DNA of 37,150 nt from an uncultured Candidatus Saccharibacteria bacterium (GCA_964604085.1 CAZRXN010000002.1:5508-42657); one strand, 5' to 3'. Shown: positions 2,803 through 37,150, numbered from the stretch's first letter. Translations and numbers: made by a program. The notes: generated by a model not told the origin, from the letters alone.

Positions 2803-3579
2803 ATGGAAACGCTGCAAAAACTATCCATACCCATCGCGATCGTCATCGCGGGCGGCCTCATTGCAGGGTCCGTCTTTTATGTAAATAGAAACGCGGGCAG
2901 CACCCCTCCCCCTTCGGGCGGCGTTGTTGCCGAAAATATACGGGGCGTGCAAGCGGACGATCACACGCTCGGCAATCCGGACGCGCCGGTCGTACTCGTC
3001 GAATTTTCCGATCCGGAGTGCCCGTTCTGCAAGCAATTCCACCAGACGCTGCACCGACTCATGACGGATTACGGCCCTTCCGGCGACGTCGTGTGGGTGT
3101 ACCGGCACTTCCCGCTCTCGCAGTTGCATCCGAAAGCGCCGAAAGAAGCCGAGGCGCTTGAGTGCGCGGCGGCGCAGGGCGGCAACGAGATGTTTTGGAA
3201 GTACACCGACCTTCTCTACGAAACAACAAACTCAAACAACTCCCTCGACGACGGCATCTACAATACCCCCGCAAACCCTCCCATCGACCCTACGACTGGC
3301 AAGCCGTACTACACGCAACATGAGCCACGGAGCGATACCGATGCAGGTATGCTCTCCGACATGGCGAAGGAGCTCGGACTTGATGTCGCAGCATTCGAAC
3401 AGTGCCTCGCCGACGGCACGTACGCGGATCGAATCGAGAAAGATTGGAACGAAGCGGTTGCTGCCGGCGGTCAAGGCACGCCCCATAGCATCCTGATCGC
3501 GCCGGATGGATCGCAGATTCCCATTGAGGGTTCGCAATCCTACGAGGTGGTAAAGGGGATGATCGACTCGCTCCTCTAA
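2803..3579 (+). CDS. Membrane-anchored DsbA-like thiol:disulfide oxidoreductase (thioredoxin fold)
   Basis: ORF 2722..3579. N-terminal TM helix (LSIPIAIVIAGGLIAGSVFYV). Active-site CPFC within FSDPECPFCKQFH. Conserved GTPHSILI (cis-Pro-loop-like) near the C-terminus. Start at ATG 2803. Confidence 0.8.
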   Translation: METLQKLSIPIAIVIAGGLIAGSVFYVNRNAGSTPPPSGGVVAENIRGVQADDHTLGNPDAPVVLVEFSDPECPFCKQFHQTLHRLMTDYGPSGDVVWVYRHFPLSQLHPKAPKEAEALECAAAQGGNEMFWKYTDLLYETTNSNNSLDDGIYNTPANPPIDPTTGKPYYTQHEPRSDTDAGMLSDMAKELGLDVAAFEQCLADGTYADRIEKDWNEAVAAGGQGTPHSILIAPDGSQIPIEGSQSYEVVKGMIDSLL

Positions 3580-6536: not shown

Positions 6537-6591
6537 GTTTCCGAGTGTATCACGCAGTGCTCCAGTGACTTGCGAGCGTCCAAACCTACAT

Positions 6592-6620
6592 TTGACATCC
6601 GAATTTTTATATTCTACAAT
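6592..6620 (+). promoter_or_regulatory. Sigma-70-type promoter TTGACA-17 nt-TACAAT
   Basis: TTGACA at 6592..6597, 17-nt AT-rich spacer, TACAAT at 6615..6620. Lies in the divergent intergenic region, about 28 nt upstream of sORF ATG 6648. Confidence 0.55.
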
Positions 6621-6647
6621 CTTGCTAGATAAATTGGGAGAAATGCA

Positions 6648-6755
6648 ATGGCACAAATCGGACGAAGCGTATTATGGAATGCCTACGTATTGTTCTTCAT
6701 TGGCTTCATGATCGTCTTTGTGGCGACGGAGCTCTGGAGCGCAGTCGGCGGCTAG
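6648..6755 (+). CDS. 35-codon hydrophobic small ORF (single predicted TM helix)
   Basis: Not in the ORF track (below its length cut-off). Hand translation: MAQIGRSVLWNAYVLFFIGFMIVFVATELWSAVGG, stop TAG 6753..6755. GGGAG at 6636..6640, 7 nt before the ATG, with a consensus promoter just upstream. Confidence 0.35.
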   Translation: MAQIGRSVLWNAYVLFFIGFMIVFVATELWSAVGG

Positions 6756-8466: not shown

Positions 8467-8537
8467 CCCCCTCTTCCCAAGTGCCTAGCTGCGGGATACC
8501 CTTCTCAAAGGGGTATGGAGAAGGAAGGATCACGCAC

Positions 8538-8945
8538 ATGCGTACACTTGCGCTTTTGGCATGCCTCGTCGGCAGCATGCTTTTTGGCCCTCCGGCCGCA
8601 CTCGCATGGGATTTGCCCCAGCAGTTCGCCTGGCAGTCTCCCTGCGGAGAGCCGCAGAATACAGCCGCGCTGATCAAGGGCTGCTATTTCGGCAAGGCCG
8701 GCTCAACCAAGCACGCGGGTCTTGCGTTCTTTCGCATCTGCGGCGCATACAAGGAGTCCGTGCCGTTTCTCATAGCGTACTTCGACAAGAATATGTATGA
8801 GTTCAATCGTGATGCGGAGGGGCGGGATACCGAGATCGGCCCGCTTTCGGATGGTCCAGCATCATCGTTCACAATCGATCCTGCACCATTCTTCGCAAAC
8901 GTCGAAGAGTGGCGAGGAACGTGTCGCGGCGGACAAGCTGCGTAG
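8538..8945 (+). CDS. Hypothetical secreted protein (signal peptide, 4 Cys)
   Basis: ORF 8481..8945. ATG 8538 gives MRTLALLACLVGSMLFGPPAALA/WDL. SD GGAGAAGGAAGGA upstream and a terminator downstream. Confidence 0.6.
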   Translation: MRTLALLACLVGSMLFGPPAALAWDLPQQFAWQSPCGEPQNTAALIKGCYFGKAGSTKHAGLAFFRICGAYKESVPFLIAYFDKNMYEFNRDAEGRDTEIGPLSDGPASSFTIDPAPFFANVEEWRGTCRGGQAA

Positions 8946-21090: not shown

Positions 21091-21567
21091 CTACTGATCG
21101 CTCTTTTCCTCTTTGGGCTCGGCCGCAGCGCTCTCCGGTTCCGACGAATCAGGAGTTTCGGCTTCAGCCGGAGCCGCTTCCTCGGGTGCGGCCGCTGTCT
21201 CCTTCTCGCCCTTGGGCTCCTCTGCCTTCGATACCTCGGCGCCCTCCTCTGCAGGTGTCTCTTCTGGTGCCTGCTCCTCTGCCTCCTTCTTGGGCGGGTG
21301 CTTTTTCGGCAGGACGTTGACCTTTTTGCCATCCACGATACCCGCCGAGACGAGCATGTTGTGTACGACACCCGAGGACTGCGCCCCTACCGAGAGCCAG
21401 TATCGAATACGGTCTTCCGCGAGAGCGCGCGCTTTTGTTTTCGGATTGTACGAGCCCACCTTTTCGATGAATGTACCCGCCTTCGGCCCCGCCGTGTGCT
21501 CGGTAACCACGAGGCGAAACGCAGGGTCGTTCCTGCGGCCGATGCGCTGCATGCGAATCTTCAACAT
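21091..21567 (-). CDS. rpsP: 30S ribosomal protein S16 with a long Glu/Ala/Pro/Lys-rich C-terminal tail
   Basis: 158 aa. N-terminus MLKIRMQRIGRRNDPAFRLVVTEHTAGPKAGTFIEKVGSYNPKT is canonical S16. About 70 aa of low-complexity tail follow. Confidence 0.93.
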   Translation of the reverse strand: MLKIRMQRIGRRNDPAFRLVVTEHTAGPKAGTFIEKVGSYNPKTKARALAEDRIRYWLSVGAQSSGVVHNMLVSAGIVDGKKVNVLPKKHPPKKEAEEQAPEETPAEEGAEVSKAEEPKGEKETAAAPEEAAPAEAETPDSSEPESAAAEPKEEKSDQ

Positions 21568-22000: not shown

Positions 22001-24172
22001 TTACTTCGCGACGCGTTCCGCCTCCTCTAGTTTTACGGAAAGAATCTTCGAGACGCCGTCATGCCCCATGGTTACCCCGTAGAGTTCGCCGGCAGCTGCC
22101 ATGGTCGCACGATTGTGCGTGATGACGATCAGCTGGCTCTTTCGACCCAACTCGCGAATCATGTCTGCATACCTACGACTGTTCGCCTCGTCGAGCGCGG
22201 CGTCCGTTTCGTCCAGTATCAAGAAAGGCGGCGGGTTCACTTGCGACATCGAAAAGATGAGTGCGATCGAAGTGAGCGCCCGCTCGCCCCCCGAGAGCGC
22301 TTCGAGCCCGCGAATTTTTTTGCGAGGCAAAGATACGTGGATCGAAAGTCCCGCATACAAATCTTCCTCGTCTTCGAGCGCGTCTTCCTCCGCCTCCGGA
22401 TCGACGTTGGCCGCTCTATGCCGGGGAGAGTCAACCTCAAGGCGGGCGTCTCCCCCGCCGAAGAGCTTCGAGAAAAAACCTCGGAGGGCCTCATTGATGT
22501 GGGCGAGACCCTCGGTGAAGCGCTCGTCAATCGTTTTCTCCAGGTCGGCAATGATGTCCTTGAGGGAGGCCGCGGAACGCTCCAAGTCGGCGAGCTCCCG
22601 CGCGAGAAACTCGTCCCGCTCTTTCGTCTGCGTGAACTCCTTTAGGATATTCTCGGTCTCGCCGAGTCCCGCTTCCTCTATCTTGATCTTGAGCCGCTCG
22701 ATCGCGCGTCGGCGCTTTTCCTGCTCCCCTCTATCCTCCGACAGCGCCCCTGGGGGAAGCTCCGCCCGCTCGAAACTGGAAGCCGCAACCCCCGCAAGGA
22801 CGACGCCTTCACGTACCTCCTCTTCGAAACGCTGGCGCAGGAGGGCGAGCTCTTCTAAACGGCGCGCCGTCGCCGCGCGGGCGGCCGTCTTCTCTCGTCG
22901 GGCCGCCTCGTCGGTCAGCATGTGGCGCTCGGCGTCATAGCGCGCTTCGCGCGCGCTCTCGGCAGCGGCGCGCGCCTCGCGAAGCGCGCGGTCGGCCTCC
23001 TCTTCTGCTTCCGTCGCGGAGGCGAGCCGCCGCGCAAGCGCTTCCACTTTTGCGCGCGCACTCGAGTCGACGGGCGCGTCGCCCAGATCCGCTATGAATG
23101 AGTCGAGCAGCGTGCGCGCGTGCGCCATGCGCCCGCGCACTTCGGAAAGATCGGAGAGCGACTGCGCGTCGGAAATGATTTTCGCGAGCTCTTGCGCAAA
23201 GGTGCGCGCTCGCGGAAGGGGCACCGGGGAGCCCTCCGCACCTGAGGCTTCGAGCGCCCCTTCGGCGCGGCCAAGCTCGCGGGCAAGCTCTTCTCGAGAT
23301 CGTCTCGCATCCGCAAGAGCTGCCTCAAGGGGGGCGGTGTCGGGCGCGCGCTCCTCTCGGGGCGACGCGGCACTCTTCGCCTCCGCGATGCGCGCCTCGA
23401 GTGCGGAGAGCTCTTGCGCCAGGCGACGATCTTCCTCCTGTGCCCTCGCCTGCTCCTGTGTTATGTAGGCACTCTCGCGCGCTAGGTATTCCGCGAGCAG
23501 ATGCTTCAGCTCTCCTTGCATGTCACGCGCCTTTTCAATGCGCTCCACTTGTATGCGCAGGAAATTCAAGTGCGGCATGATCTCACGCCGCAGCGACTTA
23601 GTTTTATCGATATTGGCAGCCGTCTCGTCGAGTTTGCGTTCGCTCTCCGCCTTTTTGTGCTGATAGAGCTTGAGGCCAAGCGCGTCCTCAACCATCTCGC
23701 GCCGCTCCCGTGGCGACGCGTTCAGGATGCGATCGGCTTCTCCCTGCGAAATGATCTGATACCCGGAGCCGCCGATGTTCGCGCCGGCAAGGAGGCGGAT
23801 GACATCCTTGAGACGCACCTGTGAGCCATTGAGGAGATATTCATTCTGTCCGTCGCGATAAACGATGCGCTCGATCGCGATTTCGGAGAAATCCATGTCG
23901 AGAAGTCGCGTACTGTTGTCGAATACAACCCGTACTCCTGCGCGATTCGTGCGCGGCAGTCCGGGAGAGCCGCCCCAGATGAGATCTTCCCCGCGCTTGC
24001 TGCGCATGGACTTCATGGACTGCTCGCCAAGCACGAAGCGGAACGCCTCCGCCACGTTGGACTTGCCGCTCCCGTTAGGGCCGACGATTGCCGCGATCGG
24101 CGACGTAAATACGAGCTCGGTCTTCTTGCCGAACGACTTGAATCCCGAAAGCTCTATGGATTTCAGGTACAT
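22001..24172 (-). CDS. smc: SMC-family chromosome partition ATPase, short form (about 723 aa)
   Basis: ORF 22001..24175. N-head MYLKSIELSGFKSFGKKTELVFTSPIAAIVGPNGSGKSNV (Walker A). C-head LSGGERALTSIALIF (signature) and FLILDETDAALD (Walker B). Ala/Arg/Glu-rich coiled-coil middle. Start at ATG 24172 (GTG 24175 is in frame). Confidence 0.85.
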   Translation of the reverse strand: MYLKSIELSGFKSFGKKTELVFTSPIAAIVGPNGSGKSNVAEAFRFVLGEQSMKSMRSKRGEDLIWGGSPGLPRTNRAGVRVVFDNSTRLLDMDFSEIAIERIVYRDGQNEYLLNGSQVRLKDVIRLLAGANIGGSGYQIISQGEADRILNASPRERREMVEDALGLKLYQHKKAESERKLDETAANIDKTKSLRREIMPHLNFLRIQVERIEKARDMQGELKHLLAEYLARESAYITQEQARAQEEDRRLAQELSALEARIAEAKSAASPREERAPDTAPLEAALADARRSREELARELGRAEGALEASGAEGSPVPLPRARTFAQELAKIISDAQSLSDLSEVRGRMAHARTLLDSFIADLGDAPVDSSARAKVEALARRLASATEAEEEADRALREARAAAESAREARYDAERHMLTDEAARREKTAARAATARRLEELALLRQRFEEEVREGVVLAGVAASSFERAELPPGALSEDRGEQEKRRRAIERLKIKIEEAGLGETENILKEFTQTKERDEFLARELADLERSAASLKDIIADLEKTIDERFTEGLAHINEALRGFFSKLFGGGDARLEVDSPRHRAANVDPEAEEDALEDEEDLYAGLSIHVSLPRKKIRGLEALSGGERALTSIALIFSMSQVNPPPFLILDETDAALDEANSRRYADMIRELGRKSQLIVITHNRATMAAAGELYGVTMGHDGVSKILSVKLEEAERVAK

Positions 24173-24250
24173 CACGTTAGTTTACCTATTGTATCAGGCA
24201 AAAGTTCATGCCCACGCCCTGTTCACTACACTGTATTCCCTGTTCCGTAC

Positions 24251-24988: not shown

Positions 24989-25894
24989 TTATGCGCGGCT
25001 CTTTTGCGCGAGGATGTTGATCGCGCGCGTAATCACCGGAAGGATGTCATCGTAAAAATTGAGGTCGCCGACACGTGCGAGCGGAAACCACTGCGCGTCG
25101 TCCAGACCGCCCTCTTTCTTGAGCCGCAGTTCCGAAAAGGGCGCGCGCGCGAGGAAGTAGGTCGCATGCCGTTTCTTTTTGCCGTGAGCGCCATTTGATG
25201 AATCGTTGGCGATGTACTCGTTCTCGCCGAGCTTCTCCTCTACTTCGACATCAAGACCGATTTCCTCTTTCACTTTTCGCAGAACGCCCTCCTCGTGACC
25301 CTCGTTCTGCTTGAGTTTCCCCTTTGAGAGCGTCCAGTGTCCAAAAATGTCGTGCACGAGGGCAAGGTATACGCCGTCAGGATCCCGCGCGTACACCACT
25401 GCCCCGACGAGCTCTTCGATCGGCATGGGGCCGCCCTTCTCTTTCCGCTTCGACCCCTCTGCTTTTCCCGGCTCGCCGAGCTCGATATATACAGCGCCCA
25501 AAACGCCGTTGACGAAGCGACTTGAGGCGCTGGAGCCAAACGTCTTCGCGAGCTCGATTGCTTCGTTGATGGCCACCTTTGCGGGAACCTGGGAACGGTC
25601 TGCATACAGCAGCTCCGCAAAGCCGATCCGCAGCACGTTTCGATCGATTGCCGCGATCTTTTCCAAAGGCCACTCGGGTGCCGCACGCGCGATCACCGCG
25701 TCTATTTCGCTCTGCTTGGCGATGACCGTCTTGAGGAGCGACTGCATGAATGGCATGTCCTGCGGGCGTGCGCCGAATTCGGAGGCATATGAGGAGAGAT
25801 GCTCCAGGGACTGCTCGAGCGACGTGTCGCCCGACTGATCCCTCTCGAAGAGGACCTGAAGGACGACGGATCGCGCAAGATGCCTATTTGCCAT
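24989..25894 (-). CDS. nusB: NusB antitermination factor fused to a C-terminal Nudix hydrolase domain
   Basis: ORF 24989..25939, start ATG 25894 (MANRHLARSVVLQVLFERD). NusB core: AIDRNVLRIGFAELLY ... VAINEAIELAKTFGSSASSRFVNGVLGAV. After a Lys/Glu/Gly linker comes the Nudix box GKLKQNEGHEEGVLRKVKEEIGL (G-x5-E-x7-R-x-U-x-E-E-x-G-U). Confidence 0.85.
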   Translation of the reverse strand: MANRHLARSVVLQVLFERDQSGDTSLEQSLEHLSSYASEFGARPQDMPFMQSLLKTVIAKQSEIDAVIARAAPEWPLEKIAAIDRNVLRIGFAELLYADRSQVPAKVAINEAIELAKTFGSSASSRFVNGVLGAVYIELGEPGKAEGSKRKEKGGPMPIEELVGAVVYARDPDGVYLALVHDIFGHWTLSKGKLKQNEGHEEGVLRKVKEEIGLDVEVEEKLGENEYIANDSSNGAHGKKKRHATYFLARAPFSELRLKKEGGLDDAQWFPLARVGDLNFYDDILPVITRAINILAQKSRA

Positions 25895-25970
25895 AGAGAA
25901 CAATTTCCTTAGTGTACAAAATTTCCCCCCGAGCAACACCGCGGGATCGGGAAAAGTCGGGACAAGGCGC

Positions 25971-30117: not shown

Positions 30118-31869
30118 ATGGCGGACGGCGACGCACTTGCGCATACGCGACACACACTTGCTCATCTCCTCGCCGCCTCCGTTCGCGAACACTATCCGGA
30201 CGCGAAGTTGACCCTAGGACCCGCGATCGACACGGGATTTTATTACGACATAGATTTCGGCAGCGAAAAGATCTCCGATGAAGATCTCTCGAAACTCGAG
30301 GAGACCATGCGCGCGCTCCTTCCCACGTGGGACGATTTTACCCACCGAGAAGTATCGAAAGAGGAAGCGCTCGCACTCTTTGCCGGGAATCCCTATAAGG
30401 AGGAGCTCATTCGGGAAATAGCGGATCGCGGGGAGTCCATCACGCTCTATACGTGCGGCAATTTTACCGACCTGTGCCGCGGCGGCCACACGGAGCACCC
30501 CTCGAAAGAGATCAAGCCGGATTCTTTCAAGCTCGACCGCATTGCGGGCGCATACTGGCGCGGCGACGAAAAAAATCCCATGCTCACCCGCATCTACGGC
30601 CTCGCATTCAAGACGAAAGCTGCGCTCGACGAGTACCTCGCGATGCGCGAAGAGGCCTTACGCCGAGACCACCGGAAAATCGCTAAAGAGCAAGACCTCC
30701 TGATTTTTTCGGACCTGGTCGGAAGCGGCATGCCGCTCTATACGCCGCGCGGCAATCTCGTACGTGGCGCGATCGTTGCCTACTCGCGCGAGCTCAACGA
30801 GCGCCTCGGCTTCGGAGAGGTGCATACGCCAAACATCAACAAAGCGGAGCTTTTCAAGATTTCCGGCCACTACGATCAGTACAAGGACGACATGCTCTCG
30901 GTGAGCTCCCAGTACGTAGCCGATGAAATGTTTCTCAAGCCCATGAACTGCCCGCAGCACACGCAAATTTACGCCTCGCGGCCCCGTAGTTATCGCGACC
31001 TCCCGCTCCGATACGCTGACTTCGCGAACCTCTATCGCGACGAGCGCCCCGGAGAATTATCGGGACTGACGCGTCTGCGCGCGTTCGCGCAGGACGACGG
31101 CCACATCTTCTGCCGAGTTGATCAGATCGAGGAAGAAGTCTCGGAGGTGCTCGGAGCGATTCAAGACGCGCTCGCTACATATAAGATCGACTATTGGATG
31201 CGGCTCTCGCTGCGCGATGAAAATAATACGGCGAAGTACCTCGGAGACGATGCGATCTGGCAGTCCTCACAGACGATCTTGCGCGACCTTTTGCAAAAAA
31301 AGAAAATCGAGTTCAAGGAGGCGGAGGGTGAAGCGGCTTTTTATGGCCCAAAGATAGACATCATGGCGGTGGATGCCCTCGGAAGAGAGTGGCAAATTTC
31401 GACGGTGCAACTCGATTTCAATCAGCCGGCCCGCTTCGGACTCACCTACGCGGATTCCGACGGCTCGGAAAAAATTCCGGTCATGATCCATCGTGCGCTT
31501 ATTGGCTCGCCCGATCGCTTCCTCGGCATTCTTCTCGAGCACTATGCGGGAGCACTCCCCACGTGGCTTGCGCCCTATCCAGTGCGCATCCTCCCCGTAT
31601 CTGATAAGCATGCTTCATACGCGGGAGAGGTCCGCGCATTTCTAGGTGAGCGCGGTATTCGGGCTGAGCTCGACGATTCGAACGAGACACTCGGCAAGCG
31701 GATCCGCGAGGCAAAGCTCGCGAAAATTCCCTACGTGCTCGTCGTCGGTGACACCGAAGTTGCGGCCGGATCCGTCACCGTGGAGAGCCGAGACAAGGGA
31801 AAGATCGGCGCACGCTCGAAAGAGGAGTTCGCGGACGATCTCATTGAGGAGATTCGCACGCGCGCCTAG
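30118..31869 (+). CDS. thrS: Threonyl-tRNA synthetase lacking the N-terminal TGS domain
   Basis: 583 aa. Begins in the editing/SAD region (HTRHTLAHLLA, H-x3-H). Class II core with FLKPMNCPQH, RYADFANLYRDERPGELSGLTRLRAFAQDDGHIF and FYGPKID, followed by an anticodon-binding domain. Confidence 0.93.
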   Translation: MADGDALAHTRHTLAHLLAASVREHYPDAKLTLGPAIDTGFYYDIDFGSEKISDEDLSKLEETMRALLPTWDDFTHREVSKEEALALFAGNPYKEELIREIADRGESITLYTCGNFTDLCRGGHTEHPSKEIKPDSFKLDRIAGAYWRGDEKNPMLTRIYGLAFKTKAALDEYLAMREEALRRDHRKIAKEQDLLIFSDLVGSGMPLYTPRGNLVRGAIVAYSRELNERLGFGEVHTPNINKAELFKISGHYDQYKDDMLSVSSQYVADEMFLKPMNCPQHTQIYASRPRSYRDLPLRYADFANLYRDERPGELSGLTRLRAFAQDDGHIFCRVDQIEEEVSEVLGAIQDALATYKIDYWMRLSLRDENNTAKYLGDDAIWQSSQTILRDLLQKKKIEFKEAEGEAAFYGPKIDIMAVDALGREWQISTVQLDFNQPARFGLTYADSDGSEKIPVMIHRALIGSPDRFLGILLEHYAGALPTWLAPYPVRILPVSDKHASYAGEVRAFLGERGIRAELDDSNETLGKRIREAKLAKIPYVLVVGDTEVAAGSVTVESRDKGKIGARSKEEFADDLIEEIRTRA

Positions 31870-32429
31870 CGGCGCAAGCCGAATCGCCGCAGAGCGCGCA
31901 GCATCTGTGCGTACAGTCCGCCGCGCCAAAATACAATCAGGTAGGCCCCTGCGATAGAAATGGCGATAAGACCTGCCCAGTACAATGCGTTGCCTATCGG
32001 CCCGAAGTCGAAACCCGTATAGGGCAAACTGGAGACCGAAATTGTCGTACTCGAAGCGGTGCTCCTGCACACGGTCTCACCGGCCTGCCCTACCGCCGTG
32101 AGCGTATATACCTCAGTGGGGCTTGCGACCGCTCTCGTGCCGGAAAGCGGTACGGGGCCTATACCGTGATCGATCGAGGCCGATGACGCGTTTGCCACCG
32201 ACCAGCCGAGCACCCCCGACGCGCCCATGTCCCGCATTTCGATATAGCACGCAGGTACCGACGTACTCGTAGAACTGGCGGTCGTGCTAGCGGAGTCTGC
32301 ATGTACGACTGCTCCCGAACCGACCAGCGCGAATGGAACAGCCTCGAAGAAAATGACTGATCCGGCGACGATCGCGATAATGAATCCTATCTGCCAAAAC
32401 CTCGCAAAAAATTTTTGTATGCTTTGCAT
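31866..32429 (-). CDS. Surface/membrane protein, short paralogue (one Cys-bracketed repeat + PYTG C-terminal module)
   Basis: 187 aa. N-terminal hydrophobic anchor, one repeat unit (C61 ... C121) and the C-terminus SLPYTGFDFGPIGNALYW + TM + RRFGLRR. Its stop overlaps the thrS stop on CTAG (31866..31869). Confidence 0.65.
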   Translation of the reverse strand: MQSIQKFFARFWQIGFIIAIVAGSVIFFEAVPFALVGSGAVVHADSASTTASSTSTSVPACYIEMRDMGASGVLGWSVANASSASIDHGIGPVPLSGTRAVASPTEVYTLTAVGQAGETVCRSTASSTTISVSSLPYTGFDFGPIGNALYWAGLIAISIAGAYLIVFWRGGLYAQMLRALRRFGLRR

Positions 32430-32496
32430 ACCCGCATAAAAGATTTGGTTAATGTGACCATTTTCATGCTCCCTCGTGAGCGCTCCATGAAAGCGA

Positions 32497-32524
32497 AAGC
32501 GGCGGCCCTTAAGGGCCGCCGCTT
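32497..32524 (-). terminator. Hairpin terminator downstream of the 667-aa gene
   Basis: Stem AGCGGCGGCCC (32498..32508) / GGGCCGCCGCT (32513..32523), loop TTAA, with T/A runs on both sides. Confidence 0.7.
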
Positions 32525-32543
32525 TTAATCGCCGTTACTCTTC

Positions 32544-34547
32544 TTAACTTCTATGAATCACGATGCGCGGCGCTTCGCCTCCCTTAGAAGGAATCATGCG
32601 CATGACATCGGCGAACTGCGCGCCATAGGTTCGGCTCCCGGCCGTGCGAAGGGCCTGCGGAATCCGGAATTCAGTCGCACTCTTCGCGTACGCGCGCGCC
32701 GTGCTTGCGATGGTGGCGCGGTAGTAGACTCCAAGGTAGAGGCACGCTACCGCGAGAGAGAGAATCGAGAGCCAGTAGGCTGCCGAGCCGATCGGTCCGA
32801 GGTCGAGCCCCGTATAGGGAACCTGCGTCAGGGAGATATACGGCGGTACCACCGGCGGAATGTACTGCTCCGTGCGGCAGGTTACGCTCTGCCCATTTGT
32901 GCCGTACGCGGTCATCGTGTACTGGGTGTAGCCACTAAGCTGCACGCTTCGCGATCCCGAGACGGCTACCGAGCCGATGTTGGAGATATACGCGGAGGTC
33001 GCGTTTGTCGAACCCCACGAGAGCGTCGCCTGATTGCCGTACCCATACTGATTGTAGTTCGATAGCGTGATCCAGCAGCTCGGGCCGGGCGTGTACGTGT
33101 TCACGTAGATCGTCGTGTGGCACTGCGCGCTCTGCCCGTTGTACCCGTACACCGTGAGCGTGTAGGTGGTCGTCGTGTTCGGGTAGACACTCTGGCTGCC
33201 GTTTACGCCGACGGACCCTATGTTGGTGAGGTAGGCGGACGTGGCGTTCGAGGACGACCAAGAAAGGTACGAGCTGCCGCCCTGTGAAATCGAAGTCGGG
33301 TTCGCGTAAATGCTGCACGAAGGCGTCTCGACCTGATTTACGTAGATGCTGGTCTGGCACTGCACGCTCTGTCCGTTCGTGCCATACACCGTGAGCGTGT
33401 ACGTTTTCGTGTGGTAGATGTCGTTCACCGTGCGCGATCCCGAAAGACCCACGGATCCGACACCGCCATCGATGAATGCAGAGCTGCCGTTCGTGGACGT
33501 CCACGAGAGCGTCGAGGAGCCGCCGTACTGCACGGAGCTCGGGTTGGCATAGATCGAACAGGTCGGCATTTGCTGCACCTCCACAACGATCGTGGTCGAG
33601 CACTGCGCCGTACCTCCCGGTCCGGAAATCGTCAACGTGTAGGTGCGCGTCGAAGTGAGGTTGTCCACGGTGCGGGAGCCGTTCAGCGAGACGGAACCGA
33701 TGCCGTGATTAAGGGATGCCGAAGTCGCGTTCGTAGACGTCCAAACGAGCGTGGACGCGCCGCCGTACTGCACCTGCGTAGGATTCGCGTAAATGGTGCA
33801 CGAGGGCGTCTGCTGTATTTTCACGATGATCGTGGTCTGGCACTTCGCGACGCCGCCCTGGCTGGTGACGGTGAGCGTATAGGTAACATCGCCAGTCAGA
33901 TTCGAAACCGTGTGCGAGCCGTTCTTAGAGACAGAGCCAATGCCGTGATCCAGCGATACCGAGGTGCCGTTGGTGGAGGTCCACGTAAGCGTAGACGAGC
34001 CGCCGTACTCGACGACACCAGGATTCGCCGAGAGCGTACAGCTCGGCTTTTGCGGCGGCGGGATTACGGTCACTTTGACGCTGCAGTCCTCGTCCCCGTC
34101 ATCGTTTGAGACGGTAAGGGTGTAGGTCGTAGTCGTATCCGGGGAAACGACACGGGATCCATCGTCCGGCACGTTCCCTATCCCATGATTGATGAATGCA
34201 TCGTCCGCGTTGGTAGATTCCCAGATCAGCGTCGTAGTCTCGCCCTTCACGATCGTCTTGATCGAGACGTCTATGTCGCAGGAGGGCGGCTGCTTCTTGT
34301 GGAAATTCCAGCCACCAGGGTTGAAATCGCCGCTGGAAGAGCCGTCGCCGCCAGAGCCGCAGCAGTCGCCGCCGCCGCCGCCATCACCACCGTCGGCGTG
34401 CGAGAGCAGTACGCCAATCGAAAGCGATCCGTCCTTCCCATGTTCAATGGAAAACGGCATCGCCATCGCAACAGAAATCGCGAGTGCGGCAGAGCCGATA
34501 ACGAAACCGATAACCCAGTAACGATTGAAAACGCGGCTGATAGACAT
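32544..34547 (-). CDS. Large surface protein: N-terminal anchor, Gly/Asp-rich DCC segment, six Cys-bracketed ~80-aa repeats, PYTG C-terminal module
   Basis: 667 aa. See the repeat feature. C-terminus LTQVPYTGLDLGPIGSAAYW + TM + about 58-aa tail ending GGEAPRIVIHRS. Confidence 0.8.
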   Translation of the reverse strand: MSISRVFNRYWVIGFVIGSAALAISVAMAMPFSIEHGKDGSLSIGVLLSHADGGDGGGGGDCCGSGGDGSSSGDFNPGGWNFHKKQPPSCDIDVSIKTIVKGETTTLIWESTNADDAFINHGIGNVPDDGSRVVSPDTTTTYTLTVSNDDGDEDCSVKVTVIPPPQKPSCTLSANPGVVEYGGSSTLTWTSTNGTSVSLDHGIGSVSKNGSHTVSNLTGDVTYTLTVTSQGGVAKCQTTIIVKIQQTPSCTIYANPTQVQYGGASTLVWTSTNATSASLNHGIGSVSLNGSRTVDNLTSTRTYTLTISGPGGTAQCSTTIVVEVQQMPTCSIYANPSSVQYGGSSTLSWTSTNGSSAFIDGGVGSVGLSGSRTVNDIYHTKTYTLTVYGTNGQSVQCQTSIYVNQVETPSCSIYANPTSISQGGSSYLSWSSSNATSAYLTNIGSVGVNGSQSVYPNTTTTYTLTVYGYNGQSAQCHTTIYVNTYTPGPSCWITLSNYNQYGYGNQATLSWGSTNATSAYISNIGSVAVSGSRSVQLSGYTQYTMTAYGTNGQSVTCRTEQYIPPVVPPYISLTQVPYTGLDLGPIGSAAYWLSILSLAVACLYLGVYYRATIASTARAYAKSATEFRIPQALRTAGSRTYGAQFADVMRMIPSKGGEAPRIVIHRS
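32841..34286 (-). repeat. Six tandem coding repeats (~80 aa each, beta-sandwich/Ig-like by pattern)
   Basis: Units start at PSCDIDV, PSCTLSA, PSCTIYA, PTCSIYA, PSCSIYA and PSCWITL. Each carries ...STL-x-W-x-STNA-x-SA...IGSV...GS-x-x-V...TYTLTV...C. Confidence 0.85.
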
Positions 34548-34590
34548 ATACGATTTGAATAATTTGATAAATAGTACGTAAGGTTGGTTC

Positions 34591-34615
34591 GGAAGCGGGC
34601 AGACTGCCCGCCTCC
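34591..34615 (-). terminator. Hairpin downstream of the small secreted-protein gene (weak terminator candidate)
   Basis: GGAAGCGGGCA / TGCCCGCCTCC arms with one G-U pair on the minus RNA. No clear U-run follows. Confidence 0.3.
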
Positions 34616-34625
34616 GAAAAGAGAA

Positions 34626-34940
34626 CTAACGGTCGAGATAGACGGTCGAGCCAATAATTCGACTCACGGTGTAGCGCACACCTTTAATGATCGTGCACCA
34701 CTCCCAGCTGGGGCGGATGTCCGCCATTCCGCAGCGGTACCCTCCTTGATTGGAAGTGAGGGTAATCTTTCCGGTCTGCCAACACCGGTGGCCTGGACAT
34801 TGAGAAGCTTTTCCCAATGTAATCCAGGCTCCCGGGTAGACGAACCCAGTCCCGCGTATGCAGTACGTGCCCGCAAACGCCTGAGAGGAAGCTGCAAAGA
34901 CCATCGCAGCAACCAGAACCCCCAGAGAAAACTTTTTCAT
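34626..34940 (-). CDS. Small secreted Cys-rich protein (signal peptide, 5 Cys in the mature part)
   Basis: 104 aa. MKKFSLGVLVAAMVFAASSQAFA/GTYC. Strong SD GGAGGAGGAG directly upstream. No family recognised. Confidence 0.65.
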   Translation of the reverse strand: MKKFSLGVLVAAMVFAASSQAFAGTYCIRGTGFVYPGAWITLGKASQCPGHRCWQTGKITLTSNQGGYRCGMADIRPSWEWCTIIKGVRYTVSRIIGSTVYLDR

Positions 34941-35055
34941 CTCCTCCTCCGTTAATAAAGCACGCAGTTAGCGTGCTATCTATCTAAAAGGTTACATCAT
35001 TTTTACCTATCTGTCAAGCATTTTCTCATGAATCCATGAAGGCCTCATGAGCACG

Positions 35056-35081
35056 AAAAAACGGCCTTTCGGCCGTTTTTT
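35056..35081. terminator. Bidirectional rho-independent terminator
   Basis: AAAAAACGGCC (35056..35066) / GGCCGTTTTTT (35071..35081), loop TTTC. Lies downstream of the 654-aa gene stop (35114). Confidence 0.75.
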
Positions 35082-35113
35082 CGTTCACTTGGAGTCGCAC
35101 CCGTCCTCATTTA

Positions 35114-37078
35114 TTAATTTCGCTTAATGACAATGCGCGGCATTCCCCCGTCTTCCGGTTGTATGAATGACATACGATCGGAAGAGCTTTCGCTCGCGAC
35201 TGGCTGCACAGGCAGCACGGCAGGGCGCACTTCCCTTTCCATCTGCTCGCTCGCGCTCGGCTGCGTTCCGCCCGTGCGGCGCACGCTTGACGCGAGTCCC
35301 GTGGCAAAGGCGACCATGCCTCCCTTCCAGTAGATGAGAAGGTACGCGGCTGCCGCCGAGATCGAAAGGAGCGAGAGCCAGTACAGAGCGTTTCCAATCG
35401 GCCCGAAGTCGAATCCCGTGTACGGAATCTGCGTGAGCGAGATGCTTCCCGAGACGGTTACGTAGGTCTGGCAGGTGGACGTGTGGCCCTGGTAGTCCTG
35501 CACGGTCAGCGTATAGGTGCGGGACGTATTAGGGCGGACGCCGAGCGAGCCGTTCGCGGAAACGGAGCCGAGCCCGTCAGAGAGGTACGCAGAGTTTGCA
35601 CCTACGGAGGTCCAAGAGAGGTACGACGTCTCGCCATCGCGGATCGACGCGGGACTTGCGGAGATCGTGCAGGAAACCGGCTGCTGATTAACTACCGTCT
35701 GGCAGTTCGCGCTCTGTCCGTTGTACCCGTACACAGTCATCGAGTAGACGGTGCCGCTCGACGGGTATACGGTGCGCGACCCACTCGTGGAGACCGAGCC
35801 GATATTCGGCGAGATCGTAGCGGAGGTCGCATTGGTCGAGCCCCAGGAGAGCGTGGACTGATTGTTGTACGAAGAGTAAGGCGAGAGCGTGATCCAGCAG
35901 CTCGGCGCGCCCTGATTACTGGTGTAGACGGTGGCCTGGCAGTTCGCACTCTGGCCATTGTATCCGTACACGGTAAGCGTGTAGGTCATGGTGCCGTTCG
36001 GATACACCGTCCGGGAGCCATTGGTAGAGACGGAGCCGATATTGGAGAGCGAAGCGGAAGACGCATTGGAGCTATTCCACGTGAGCGTTACTGGAGAGCC
36101 CGAGTTCAGATTCGTCGTAGACGCGTAGATGGTGCACGAAGGCGCCTGCTGGCTCACATAGACGGTCGTCTGGCAGTTCGAGGTGCCGCCCTGGCCGTAG
36201 ACGGTGAGGACGTAGGTCGTCGTCTGGCTCGGGTATACCGACTGGGAACCGTTCGTAGAAACGGAGCCGACATTGGAGAGCGACGCCGAGGTGGCGTAGT
36301 TCGAGTGCCACACCAGCGAGACCGACTGTGCGGAGGTGATGCTGCCCGGGGTGGCGGTGATGCTGCAGCTCGGCTGATTGAACGTGTACTGGACCGGATG
36401 ATAATTCGAGGTCGTGATCGGCGTTACGTTCGCCACGGTGATCGGCTGCGCGATTGAAATCGGAGCCGAAATCGCTATCGGCGTCGAGTAGCTCGTGTAG
36501 GAGTACGTCGGCACGTACGCGTCGTAGACGTCATATACATCGTAGGCGCTGCCATAGACATCATACACGTCGTATACATCGTACGGGTCTACGGCATTAT
36601 TATATCCGTAATCATACAGTGGATCGTTGTAGTCGAAATTGTACGCTGGATCGTTGTAGTCGAATGGGAATGTGGCGTCGTTGTAGTCGAAGTCAAACGT
36701 GGAATCGTTATAGGCGACGTCGAACGCAGAGTCGTTGTACTCGTAATATGAGGAGTAATCGTTAAAGGTTGGATCGTAGGAGAAATCGTTATAGTCGTAC
36801 CACAAGGAGGAATCATTGTAGTCAAAACTATATAGAGTATCGTTGTAACCCCAATCGTACTCCGGCTCGTTATAGGAGTACGAGAAGTCGAAGTCATTGA
36901 ATCCGGGATCATAGGAGAAATCGTTATAGCCCAGATCGAAAGCAGCGTCGTTGTAACCAAAATCGTATTCGCAGCAATCGAACTGCGCGAACGTCTGTTG
37001 CGGGATGGAAGTTACTCCGACGAATACTGCACAAATCAGTATCCCGGAGAGGAGAAAACGCTGGATGGCTGAACTCAT
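35114..37078 (-). CDS. Large surface protein: signal peptide, YND nonapeptide-repeat region, DVY repeats, four Cys-bracketed repeats, PYTG C-terminal module
   Basis: 654 aa. Signal MSSAIQRFLLSGILICAVFVGVTSIPQQTFA/QFDCC. C-terminus LTQIPYTGFDFGPIGNALYW + TM + about 70-aa tail ending DGGMPRIVIKRN. Confidence 0.8.
   Translation of the reverse strand: MSSAIQRFLLSGILICAVFVGVTSIPQQTFAQFDCCEYDFGYNDAAFDLGYNDFSYDPGFNDFDFSYSYNEPEYDWGYNDTLYSFDYNDSSLWYDYNDFSYDPTFNDYSSYYEYNDSAFDVAYNDSTFDFDYNDATFPFDYNDPAYNFDYNDPLYDYGYNNAVDPYDVYDVYDVYGSAYDVYDVYDAYVPTYSYTSYSTPIAISAPISIAQPITVANVTPITTSNYHPVQYTFNQPSCSITATPGSITSAQSVSLVWHSNYATSASLSNVGSVSTNGSQSVYPSQTTTYVLTVYGQGGTSNCQTTVYVSQQAPSCTIYASTTNLNSGSPVTLTWNSSNASSASLSNIGSVSTNGSRTVYPNGTMTYTLTVYGYNGQSANCQATVYTSNQGAPSCWITLSPYSSYNNQSTLSWGSTNATSATISPNIGSVSTSGSRTVYPSSGTVYSMTVYGYNGQSANCQTVVNQQPVSCTISASPASIRDGETSYLSWTSVGANSAYLSDGLGSVSANGSLGVRPNTSRTYTLTVQDYQGHTSTCQTYVTVSGSISLTQIPYTGFDFGPIGNALYWLSLLSISAAAAYLLIYWKGGMVAFATGLASSVRRTGGTQPSASEQMEREVRPAVLPVQPVASESSSDRMSFIQPEDGGMPRIVIKRN
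35447..36373 (-). repeat. Four tandem coding repeats of the same ~80-aa Cys-bracketed unit
   Basis: Units start at PSCSITA, PSCTIYA, PSCWITL and VSCTISA. Same W-x-S-x-NA-x-SA / IGSV / TYTLTV / C pattern as in 32841..34286. Confidence 0.85.
36515..36982 (-). repeat. 14 x nonapeptide [YF]N[DE]-x-x-[FY]-x-x-x coding repeat (27-nt period), followed by (DVY)n
   Basis: aa 33-188: FDCCEYDFG YNDAAFDLG YNDFSYDPG FNDFDFSYS YNEPEYDWG YNDTLYSFD YNDSSLWYD YNDFSYDPT FNDYSSYYE YNDSAFDVA YNDSTFDFD YNDATFPFD YNDPAYNFD YNDPLYDYG YNN, then DPYDVYDVYDVYGSAYDVYDVYDAY. On the plus strand this shows as RTCRTTRTA recurring every 27 nt. Confidence 0.9.
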
Positions 37079-37109
37079 AGGTAATAGCGCTTATTTCTTA
37101 ATGAATGGC

Positions 37110-37138
37110 ATTATATCTTCAAACCAAATAGATGTCAA
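37110..37138 (-). promoter_or_regulatory. Perfect consensus sigma-70 promoter TTGACA-17 nt-TATAAT
   Basis: Minus strand: TTGACA (37133..37138), 17-nt spacer, TATAAT (37110..37115), 31 nt upstream of ATG 37078. No obvious SD in the leader. Confidence 0.6.
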
Positions 37139-37150
37139 GGTAGCGACAAG

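Follow-up and report, generated by a model that had tools for sequence, protein, structure and literature searches.

What do repeat-bearing secreted proteins do on the surface of a bacterium with a reduced genome? This question is raised by one end of a stretch of 37,150 nucleotides (the window, to which all coordinates refer) that is deposited under an uncultured Candidatus Saccharibacteria bacterium (GCA_964604085.1 CAZRXN010000002.1:5508-42657). Three open reading frames (ORFs) on its minus strand, coding for proteins of 187, 667 and 654 aa that we named A187, B667 and D654, are paralogues of each other; BLASTP of B667 against D654 gave E = 1e-95 and of A187 against either of them 1e-21 to 1e-28, far above chance. 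A fourth ORF, C104, is located between the two larger genes (Table 1). In a previous reading made from the sequence alone, these proteins had been viewed as an expanding, disulfide-stabilised family of cell-envelope proteins or adhesins and as candidates for host or cell-cell contact. Here, unit refers to the ~80-aa repeat bracketed by two cysteines and family to the PYTG-type repeat proteins A187, B667 and D654 together with their relatives.

We propose, with a probability of about 0.6, that A187, B667 and D654 are Sec-exported, sortase-processed and wall-anchored stalks of disulfide-clamped immunoglobulin (Ig)-like beads with variable tips, and that D654 is a major surface component. According to this model, the proteins would leave a Kaiserbacteria-type cell by the Sec route and would then be held in the membrane by their C-terminal helix. 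A divergent membrane-anchored sortase, which in relatives is encoded a few kb upstream within a conserved island, would cut the exposed [ILV]PYTG motif between T and G and join the ectodomain to the cell wall. The ectodomain would form a stalk of 1, 6 or 4 beads (A187, B667 and D654, respectively), each with a disulfide from its first to its last strand that is presumably made by an MdbA-like oxidoreductase, and pulling force would be borne by covalent bonds and not by the fold, following the logic of the isopeptide clamps in pilins of Gram-positive bacteria. The distal N-terminal end would be the variable and probably the functional part, consisting of a Gly/Asp stretch with a vicinal Cys-Cys pair in B667 and of a Cys-Cys pair with ~200 aa of acidic/aromatic repeats in D654.

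A sorting signal at the C-terminus

That the three proteins have a C-terminal module in common was already recognised in the sequence-only reading and holds. What had been missed is that this module is, as judged from its sequence, a sortase-type sorting signal with a transmembrane (TM) helix, to which a conserved cytoplasmic tail is added in the two large proteins. The pentapeptide is LPYTG in A187, VPYTG in B667 and IPYTG in D654, and hydropathy windows place a TM segment behind it at residues 148-166, 585-603 and 564-582, respectively. Near the C-terminus of 84 of the 89 family genes found in related loci (see below) there is an xPxTG motif, in which P, Y, T and G are invariant in 83-84 of the 84, and the consensus of these genes extends to YVSLTQIPYTGFDFGPxGNAxY, followed by a hydrophobic helix. 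Likewise, among the 120 best matches every protein that has Cys-bracketed units and a complete C-terminus carries [ILVM]P[YH]TG and then a hydrophobic helix. A comparable C-terminal signal outside the family was seen in only one of 768 neighbourhood genes and looks spurious there. In a model of full-length B667, PYTG lies in a disordered linker (residues 564-583) in front of a helix (584-622).

The segment that follows the motif is 20-45 aa long in 10 genes, 46-79 in 16, 80-144 in 56 and longer in 2. A187, with LPYTG, a TM helix and a 19-aa tail containing 5 Arg, has the classical shape of a sorting signal; about ten relatives share this short basic tail, and the short-tail subclass recurs beside thrS. 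Proteins of the long-tail class end in D-x-M-x-[FM]...G-x-x-P-R-I-V-I-x-R-[NS], and in the B667 model the DxMxM and PRIVI segments form a terminal beta-hairpin with low confidence. A profile of the module found 744 representative clusters at E <= 1e-3 (278 at <= 1e-10) among 1.84 billion representatives, and zero matches among PDB sequences. Close homologues keep the order of an N-terminal hydrophobic segment, GGCCGG, units, a PSCWITL unit, LTQIPYTG(L/F)DLG, a TM helix and APRIVIxR[NS].

A sortase encoded beside the family in related genomes

A genome scan with the single sequence of B667 gave no relatives, its patterns being too specific; when species-representative genomes were scanned from an alignment, 55 loci were obtained. 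The family is conserved among these related genomes, with family genes in 53 of the 55 loci (one gene in 29, two in 16, three in 7 and four in 1). In 43 loci thrS adjoins the family genes convergently and is followed by dnaE, rnhB, rpmF, nusB, rnc and smc, as in the window. On the upstream side the order in relatives is pheT, gyrB, a membrane-anchored CARDB-like protein and then a protein of 220-300 aa with a TL(V/I)TC motif. The latter is a sortase: it matches PF04203 (E 1e-18 to 1e-20, with scores over the gathering threshold) and keeps the catalytic His, Cys and Arg in 26-27 of 27 sequences. Among solved structures its nearest relatives match only weakly (2kw8 at E 1e-5). Where more than 8 kb of upstream sequence is available, all loci (17/17) have the sortase gene, and with more than 4 kb 24/28 have it; it is on the same strand as the family genes and at a distance of 6 bp to 8.8 kb from the nearest of them; in loci L015, L029 and L030 the two are directly adjacent. 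Locus L007 mirrors the window in having a paralogue, a C104-like gene and a paralogue, with the sortase ~5 kb upstream, and by analogy the sortase of the source genome would lie just past window position 37150. Location in the cell envelope, as claimed previously, is thus supported by the signal-peptide-like N-termini, by [ILV]PYTG with a TM helix and by the conserved neighbouring sortase in relatives, and if wall anchoring is true, an SLTQIPYTGFDFG peptide would be expected to be cleaved by the Kaiserbacteria sortase.

Several other genes of this island were noted. The stretch between the sortase and the first family gene consists of hypervariable orphan ORFs that fall into clusters of one or two (for example L007:2266-7489 and L016:5168-9184), and many of these orphans have a signal peptide or an N-terminal TM anchor and 2-8 Cys. 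In six loci a gene for a YkuD-type L,D-transpeptidase, which fits the cell-wall theme, is found between the sortase and the PYTG genes (in L007 at 5631-6713). In 18 loci a conserved protein of ~345 aa is encoded divergently from the sortase (for example L003:593-1684 and L007:373-1422). This protein combines an N-terminal TM anchor with a C-terminus rich in Tyr, Asn, Gln and Pro, shows weak CARDB-like similarity and lacks the PYTG motif that would mark it as an obvious sortase substrate.

The repeat unit and its cysteine pair

The numbers of Cys-bracketed units given previously, 1, 6 and 4 for A187, B667 and D654, were borne out by the cysteine positions and by alignment. The bracketing pairs are 61/121 in A187; 90/155, 170/236, 250/316, 330/397, 411/476 and 491/557 in B667; and 238/302, 315/380, 394/459 and 470/536 in D654, enclosing ~66 residues each. 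At the protein level all 11 units align to a single consensus, PSC.I.a.p..G..stL.W.StNAtSA...giGSV..nGSr.V.p...tYTLTvyg..G.s..Cqtt, with 29-67% pairwise identity. Scans of the four proteins against Pfam and NCBIfam gave nothing significant and the unit profile had zero matches among PDB sequences. Some homologues match Ig_ADGRF3 above the Pfam cut-off and I-set and PKD-like K319L below it, and no protein of the window matches any of these three models at E <= 1.

A structure was modelled for the fragment comprising B667 units 3-4 from a 45-row alignment, with a mean pLDDT (predicted local distance difference test) of 97. Each modelled unit has 7-8 beta-strands arranged in a complete Ig-like two-sheet sandwich. 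In a Foldseek search of the PDB with the two-unit model, 245 matches had E <= 1e-3, with tandem Ig domains foremost; the top matches are JAM-A (E 4e-7), NCAM2, titin Z1Z2 and Dscam, and the shaft repeats of GhpA are also found. The fold of the modelled unit is that of a generic Ig-like beta-sandwich, and it bears no signature of a particular function.

One bracketing cysteine of the modelled unit sits in strand A, the first, and the other in strand G, the last. When a hidden Markov model (HMM) of the 11 window units was applied to the 120 best homologues, 724 full-length units were obtained, of which 712 (98%) contain both cysteines or neither. The 446 units of proteins with a PYTG module have both cysteines in 438 cases, one in 8 and neither in 0, and the 278 units of proteins without this module have both in 17, one in 4 and neither in 257. 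The claim of disulfide stabilisation is supported by this covariation and by the first- and last-strand positions; taken together with the even number of extracytoplasmic cysteines in the repeat proteins, they make one intradomain A-G disulfide per unit the most economical reading. Such a bond would bypass ~65 residues in each bead, and we infer a mechanical role from this, namely that the stalk would resist forced unfolding. In Gram-positive pilins of the Spy0128 type, intramolecular isopeptide bonds join the first and last strands.

Units of proteins without the PYTG module often have an alternative cysteine pair at HMM positions 31 and 60, and the homologues from outside the Patescibacteria (P0018, P0038, P0051, P0060 and others) have a unit without the bracketing cysteines and often with an alternative pair, so the placement of the disulfide would appear to be lineage-specific.

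N-terminal regions and composition of the ectodomains

The N-termini of A187 and B667 are indeed similar, as had been described; the label of anchor that they were given has to be revised, and they are more likely to be Sec signal peptides with AXA-type cleavage sites. By inspection, such sites are TFA-Q in D654, AMA-M or SHA-D in B667 and VHA-D in A187. All three proteins start with a hydrophobic helix, which in the B667 model spans aa 3-29. A vicinal Cys pair preceded by Asp was correctly noticed in both large proteins (D61-C62-C63 in B667, D34-C35-C36 in D654). In B667 it falls within residues 29-83, which are disordered in the model, and in some B667-type relatives it is present in two or three copies.

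The three paralogues represent recurrent subclasses across the clade. The subclass of B667 has multiple units, a conserved segment at the N-terminus and the Gly/Asp stretch that bears the Cys-Cys pair. D654 belongs to the commonest subclass, which combines a signal peptide, acidic/aromatic repeats, a YPVQY-type segment, 1-4 units, the sorting signal and the PRIVI tail. The low-complexity region of D654 is made of ~9-aa 'xFDYNDxx' and 'DVY' repeats and contains a 27-bp tandem array at the DNA level; similar D/Y/G/S/N repeats are present in most family members and are the hallmark of the commonest subclass. Outside the acidic repeats the ectodomains of D654 and A187 are very charge-poor, and S+T+N+Q+G make up 46-58% of the ectodomains. 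Lys is absent from the ectodomains of D654 (aa 32-550) and A187 (aa 45-134), and 11 Lys are found in that of B667.

The family had been described as expanding, and this stands only in part. The number of units varies by exactly one between close orthologues: P0022 (5 units) and P0044 (4 units) are near-identical, with termini that are 97-99% identical. In evolution the number of repeats is thus labile. The paralogues, however, are old and their units have diverged at the DNA level. A DNA-level search for tandem repeats found only short arrays, the units being too diverged for detection, and the Ig units were therefore not recently duplicated in the genome of the window.

Promoters and terminators

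The perfect TTGACA-17-TATAAT promoter reported for D654 was confirmed (12 of 12 positions). C104 has a promoter that matches at 9/12 positions with a perfect -35 element, and no sigma-70-like site was found before B667 or A187. Among the family genes of the related loci, 19 of 79 have a perfect promoter in front of them (13 of 32 in the D654 subclass), compared with 12 of 574 other genes (2%); for scores >=10 the enrichment has a Fisher p of 1e-11. These data predict high constitutive expression of the D654 class, with D654 as a probable major surface component. Outside the family a perfect TTGACA-16/17-TATAAT promoter was found for 12 genes of the 55 loci, and every one of these genes maps to the interval from the sortase to the family genes. 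The L049 sortase gene is one of the 12; the other 11 were inspected and are orphans in clusters of one or two, of which many start with a signal peptide or an N-terminal anchor and contain a few Cys.

Individual hairpin terminators had been assigned to the genes. Hairpins are present after D654, C104 and B667, but A187 has none and a T-run is found only at D654. The lack of a terminator at A187 can be explained by its stop codon, which overlaps that of the convergent thrS gene (plus strand) by 4 nt and leaves no room. The hairpins were found by an inverted-repeat search and by reading of the sequence; a consensus terminator scan missed them.

The DsbA-like oxidoreductase and small secreted proteins

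It had been suggested that the repeat proteins may depend on the membrane-anchored DsbA-like oxidoreductase of the window. This ORF matches Pfam Thioredoxin_4 at 4.8e-23 and DSBA at 5e-14, and in its 258-aa form it has a TM segment at residues 3-21 and CPFC at residue 73; no VKOR or DsbB is encoded in the window. MdbA-like oxidoreductases are enriched in genomes of the candidate phyla radiation (CPR), often beside VKOR, and sortases are present in more than half of these genomes (Meheust et al., PMC6744442). In Actinomyces oris, MdbA is needed for sortase-dependent pili (PMC5478893). A dependence of the repeat proteins on the DsbA-like protein is thus plausible by precedent, and the gene itself is located ~29 kb from the family cluster without genetic linkage.

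C104 conforms to its earlier description as a signal-peptide protein of 104 aa with five Cys, encoded between the large genes behind a strong Shine-Dalgarno sequence, which is GGAGGAGGAG directly before the ATG. Its hydrophobic N-terminus (aa 1-23) is the signal peptide and all five Cys are in the mature part. A search for homologues among 5.8 billion proteins returned only C104 itself, and weak syntenic relatives with four invariant Cys were found in 2 of the 55 loci (L007, L005). From its sequence, C104 looks like a lineage-specific orphan of the hypervariable small secreted set and not like a dedicated partner of the repeat proteins. A second small secreted Cys-rich ORF of this kind, coding for 154 aa with 6 Cys and without a Pfam match, lies upstream of rpoD; its probable start is an internal Met, giving a signal peptide that ends in ...PPAALA-WD.

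Alternative explanations

One alternative accepts anchoring to the wall and differs in purpose: the proteins would form a protective or spacing coat, similar to a substitute for a surface layer, and would not serve host or cell-cell adhesion. A coat would be in keeping with the core syntenic position beside housekeeping genes, with the presence of the family in nearly every locus, with the consensus promoters of the commonest subclass and with the very charge-poor ectodomains rich in S, T, N, Q and G; in addition, no ligand-binding domain was recognised in the library scans. However, the variable N-terminal tips and the polymorphism in unit number are better suited to an interaction surface under diversifying pressure, as are the hypervariable secreted orphans embedded in the same island. 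We consider a purely structural role possible but somewhat doubtful; on the sequence, both an adhesin and a coat are conceivable.

The main rival explanation concerns the anchoring itself. Several observations weigh against processing by a sortase, and some of them suggest that the large proteins could be permanent type I membrane receptors or adhesins, in which the tail couples to an intracellular partner and PYTG is a structural juxtamembrane motif or is cleaved conditionally. The tails of B667 and D654, with 59 and 67 aa, are not the short charged tails of classical sortase substrates. In all 744 module clusters the tail closes the protein and has invariant D, M, P, I, I and R residues, and such conservation is unexpected for a segment that is discarded after cleavage. 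More distant proteins with PYTG and a TM helix (P0013, P0055, P0059, P0095 and others) have conserved cytoplasmic C-terminal domains of 150-400 aa, and the conservation around PYTG reaches well past the pentapeptide. Neither the Pfam model Gram_pos_anchor nor the LPXTG-anchor models of NCBIfam/TIGR match any of the three proteins at E <= 1. Furthermore, the sortase of the relatives scores below every curated cut-off for classes A-F, the best being class E with 36-41 bits against 160, and no sortase is encoded within the 37-kb window.

On the other hand, a permanent membrane protein is less in keeping with the tight synteny of the sortase, up to direct adjacency in three loci, with the textbook sorting-signal shape of the short-tail members including A187, or with the exposed and unstructured position of the motif in the B667 model, and a long tail is in principle no bar to sortase processing. 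We regard the type I topology as unlikely to be the final state of these proteins, and from the features listed above we infer cleavage and wall linkage instead. The two are not mutually exclusive; the conserved tail could act after cleavage. In Streptococcus gordonii the membrane-retained remnant of a sorting signal (C-peptide) is sensed by a two-component system, according to work cited in PMC11326707. As a separate observation, the long cytoplasmic domains of the distant PYTG proteins are of two recurrent types, ending in ...KLA.TRAL... or ...AVKMAIMKA.K..., and have no match in Pfam.

A more far-reaching idea is that the Gly-rich N-terminal Cys-Cys pairs form interchain disulfide knots that covalently bundle or network the distal tips of the stalks and perhaps capture secreted orphans with an odd number of cysteines, such as C104, to serve as exchangeable adaptors at the tip, and that the PRIVI remnant reports surface assembly to the cytoplasm after sortase cleavage. 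This would amount to a disulfide-networked, sortase-gated surface organelle confined to Kaiserbacteria and Paceibacterota. Collagen III has a cystine knot at GPCCG, which the GGCCGG of B667 orthologues resembles. We view this idea as speculative and rather improbable.

Least convincing is a sortase-polymerised pilus with the three paralogues as tip, shaft and base subunits, which would be in line with the 1-4 paralogues and the sortase of each cluster, with disulfide-containing Ig-like domains as in the MdbA-dependent pilins FimA and SpaA (PMC5478893) and with a Lys that B667 orthologues often have just before the first unit (..YNPKPSC..), but which we rejected as very improbable, mainly because the Lys-free ectodomains of D654 and A187 provide no pilin-motif nucleophile and the sortase is not of class C (25-28 bits, cut-off 160), and also in view of the lack of CnaA/CnaB, pilin-motif or E-box matches, the single sortase seen per locus and the 29 of 53 loci with one family gene.

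Genomic context and coordinates

The four minus-strand ORFs described previously are present at the positions given. Housekeeping genes fill the remainder of the window in a compact series, with hisS, uppP, the DsbA-like gene, an addA-like gene, rpoD, dnaG and rpoBC, and further trmD, rpsP, smc, rnc, a nusB-NUDIX fusion, dnaE and thrS; no RNA genes were found in the whole window by Rfam and tRNA scans. The top homologues of B667 are from metagenome-assembled genomes of Candidatus Kaiserbacteria, Parcubacteria and Paceibacterota. A source organism with a reduced genome, as assumed earlier, is supported, and the window reads as that of an ultra-small, Kaiserbacteria-like member of the Patescibacteria. 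Among the housekeeping products we noted the NusB-NUDIX fusion protein, a 'mini' SMC of 724 aa in which the SMC_N head matches end to end, and a ribosomal protein S16 with a long charged C-terminal extension.

Table 1. Positions of the genes and features discussed in the text within the 37,150-nt window
Feature	Position	Strand	Description
A187	31866-32429	-	187 aa, 1 Ig-like unit; putative signal peptide/anchor; Ser/Thr linker; unit aa 58-127; LPYTG aa 135-139; TM helix; 19-aa basic tail
A187 ectodomain	32028-32297	-	
A187/thrS stop codon overlap	31866-31869		convergent
B667	32544-34547	-	667 aa, 6 Ig-like units; N-terminal helix aa 1-29; conserved segment 30-52; Gly/Asp stretch with C62-C63 53-86; units 87-563; sorting signal; TM; PRIVI tail
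B667 vicinal Cys-Cys	34359..34364	-	inside GGGGGDCCGSGG; GGCCGG in orthologues
B667 units 1-6	32859..34289	-	units 3-4 modelled, pLDDT 97
B667 extended sorting signal	32775..32840	-	YISLTQ-VPYTG-LDLGPIGSAAY; unstructured juxtamembrane linker
B667 cytoplasmic tail	32547..32723	-	ends DVMRM...GGEAPRIVIHRS; low-confidence beta-hairpin
Palindrome after B667	32496..32525	-	perfect 15-nt arms
C104	34626-34940	-	104 aa, small secreted Cys-rich protein
Hairpin after C104	34588..34618	-	15-nt arms, no T-run
D654	35114-37078	-	654 aa, 4 Ig-like units; putative signal peptide aa 1-31; C35-C36; acidic/aromatic low-complexity 37-234; units 235-542; sorting signal; TM; PRIVI tail
D654 promoter	37110..37138	-	TTGACA-17-TATAAT
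D654 ectodomain	35414-36985	-	
D654 acidic/aromatic region	36377..36970	-	198 aa (aa 37-234); Y 19%, D 17%, N 10%; missed earlier
D654 tandem DNA array	36619-36743		27-bp repeat
D654 units 1-4	35453..36376	-	each flanked by two Cys
D654 extended sorting signal	35381..35446	-	SISLTQ-IPYTG-FDFGPIGNALY
D654 cytoplasmic tail	35117..35317	-	ends DRMSF...GGMPRIVIKRN
Hairpin after D654	35046..35091	-	intrinsic-terminator-like; stem AAAAAACGGCC, loop GAAA, stem GGCCGTTTTTT, T-run
DsbA/MdbA-like oxidoreductase	2803..3579	+	TM anchor, CPFC
Small secreted Cys-rich ORF	8481-8945	+	upstream of rpoD
Ribosomal protein S16	21091-21567	-	C-terminal extension
Mini SMC	22001-24175	-	
NusB-NUDIX fusion	24989-25939	-	

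Relation to known systems

A sortase signal, an Ig-repeat stalk and an oxidoreductase together are a known design. Gram-positive LPXTG surface proteins of the MSCRAMM type (microbial surface components recognizing adhesive matrix molecules) likewise have a Sec signal, a tandem Ig stalk, xPxTG with a hydrophobic helix and a sortase nearby, and the LPYTG of A187 is also found in the beta antigen of Streptococcus agalactiae, where it is an ordinary instance of LPXTG (PMC4457541). In contrast to these proteins, the unit of the family matches no Pfam, NCBIfam or PDB sequence and has one paired Cys in its first and one in its last strand, the sorting signal is longer and nearly invariant (YVSLTQIPYTGFDFGPxGN), B667 and D654 have a conserved tail of 59-67 aa instead of a short basic one, and the linked sortase falls outside classes A-F in a CPR host.

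The MdbA-dependent pilins FimA of A. oris and SpaA of Corynebacterium diphtheriae are also Ig-like and need both a sortase and a membrane-anchored DsbA-like protein (PMC5478893), a need that for the family is suggested by precedent; the link of MdbA-like proteins to the CPR was proposed in PMC6744442. They differ from the family, in which D654 and A187 have no pilin-motif Lys, CnaB/isopeptide domains and a class C sortase are lacking, and the putative disulfide is in every unit rather than in one domain. With the isopeptide-clamped pilin domains the family would share a covalent bond between N- and C-terminal strands and hence a stalk that resists unfolding, but its clamp would be a disulfide and not a Lys-Asn/Asp bond, and would be redox-sensitive and oxidoreductase-dependent.

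Pam pili (PamA/PamB) are restricted to the CPR and resemble the family in their Ig-like folds, their paired cysteines and a proposed role in host contact; their pilins, found in Saccharimonadia and Microgenomatia, polymerise through donor-strand exchange and use chaperones anchored in the membrane (bioRxiv 10.64898/2026.03.03.709456). By contrast, each family protein, from Kaiserbacteria/Paceibacterota, is one chain in which the Ig units are complete and a sortase signal is present, and no PapD/FimC-like chaperone families are among the conserved neighbours of their genes. Membership of the Pam pili was rejected on these grounds, namely complete units, no chaperones and a different clade. Among the closest bacterial structural matches (E 1e-6 to 1e-5, 16-25% identity) is the grappling-hook shaft GhpA of Aureispira (PDB 9flw, 9g8b, 9fls and others), which also uses long Ig-repeat shafts to reach other cells. 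This similarity is at the level of the fold only. GhpA belongs to a predator of the Bacteroidota and is a multimeric protein of giant size, for which the comparison reported neither a sortase signal nor Cys clamps.

Significance for the family and its hosts

The new features are the A-G disulfide predicted for each unit, the extended invariant signal, the conserved tail, the N-terminal Cys-Cys pair and the unclassified sortase in a syntenic island. CPR surface proteins have been said in general terms to carry 'sortase motifs' (PMC5220378), and in the literature searched on PYTG motifs and CPR sortase substrates no description of the family, the PYTG signal or the tail was found. A conserved tail behind a sorting signal and a sortase outside classes A-F are, as far as this literature shows, without precedent in sortase biology, and the 744 representative clusters form a sizeable protein family without any curated model.

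For the Kaiserbacteria/Paceibacterota part of the CPR we know of no cultured member and of no explanation for contact with the presumed hosts. The chromosomal 'surface island' described here, with a sortase, hypervariable secreted orphans and 1-4 PYTG proteins, is a conserved candidate for such contact, and we predict that its major products are strongly expressed Ig stalks, clamped by disulfides, anchored to the wall and variable at the tip. This leads to testable predictions on the sortase motif, on disulfide maps, on a redox-dependent mechanical clamp and on fibrils of ~15-25 nm that should be visible by cryo-electron tomography.

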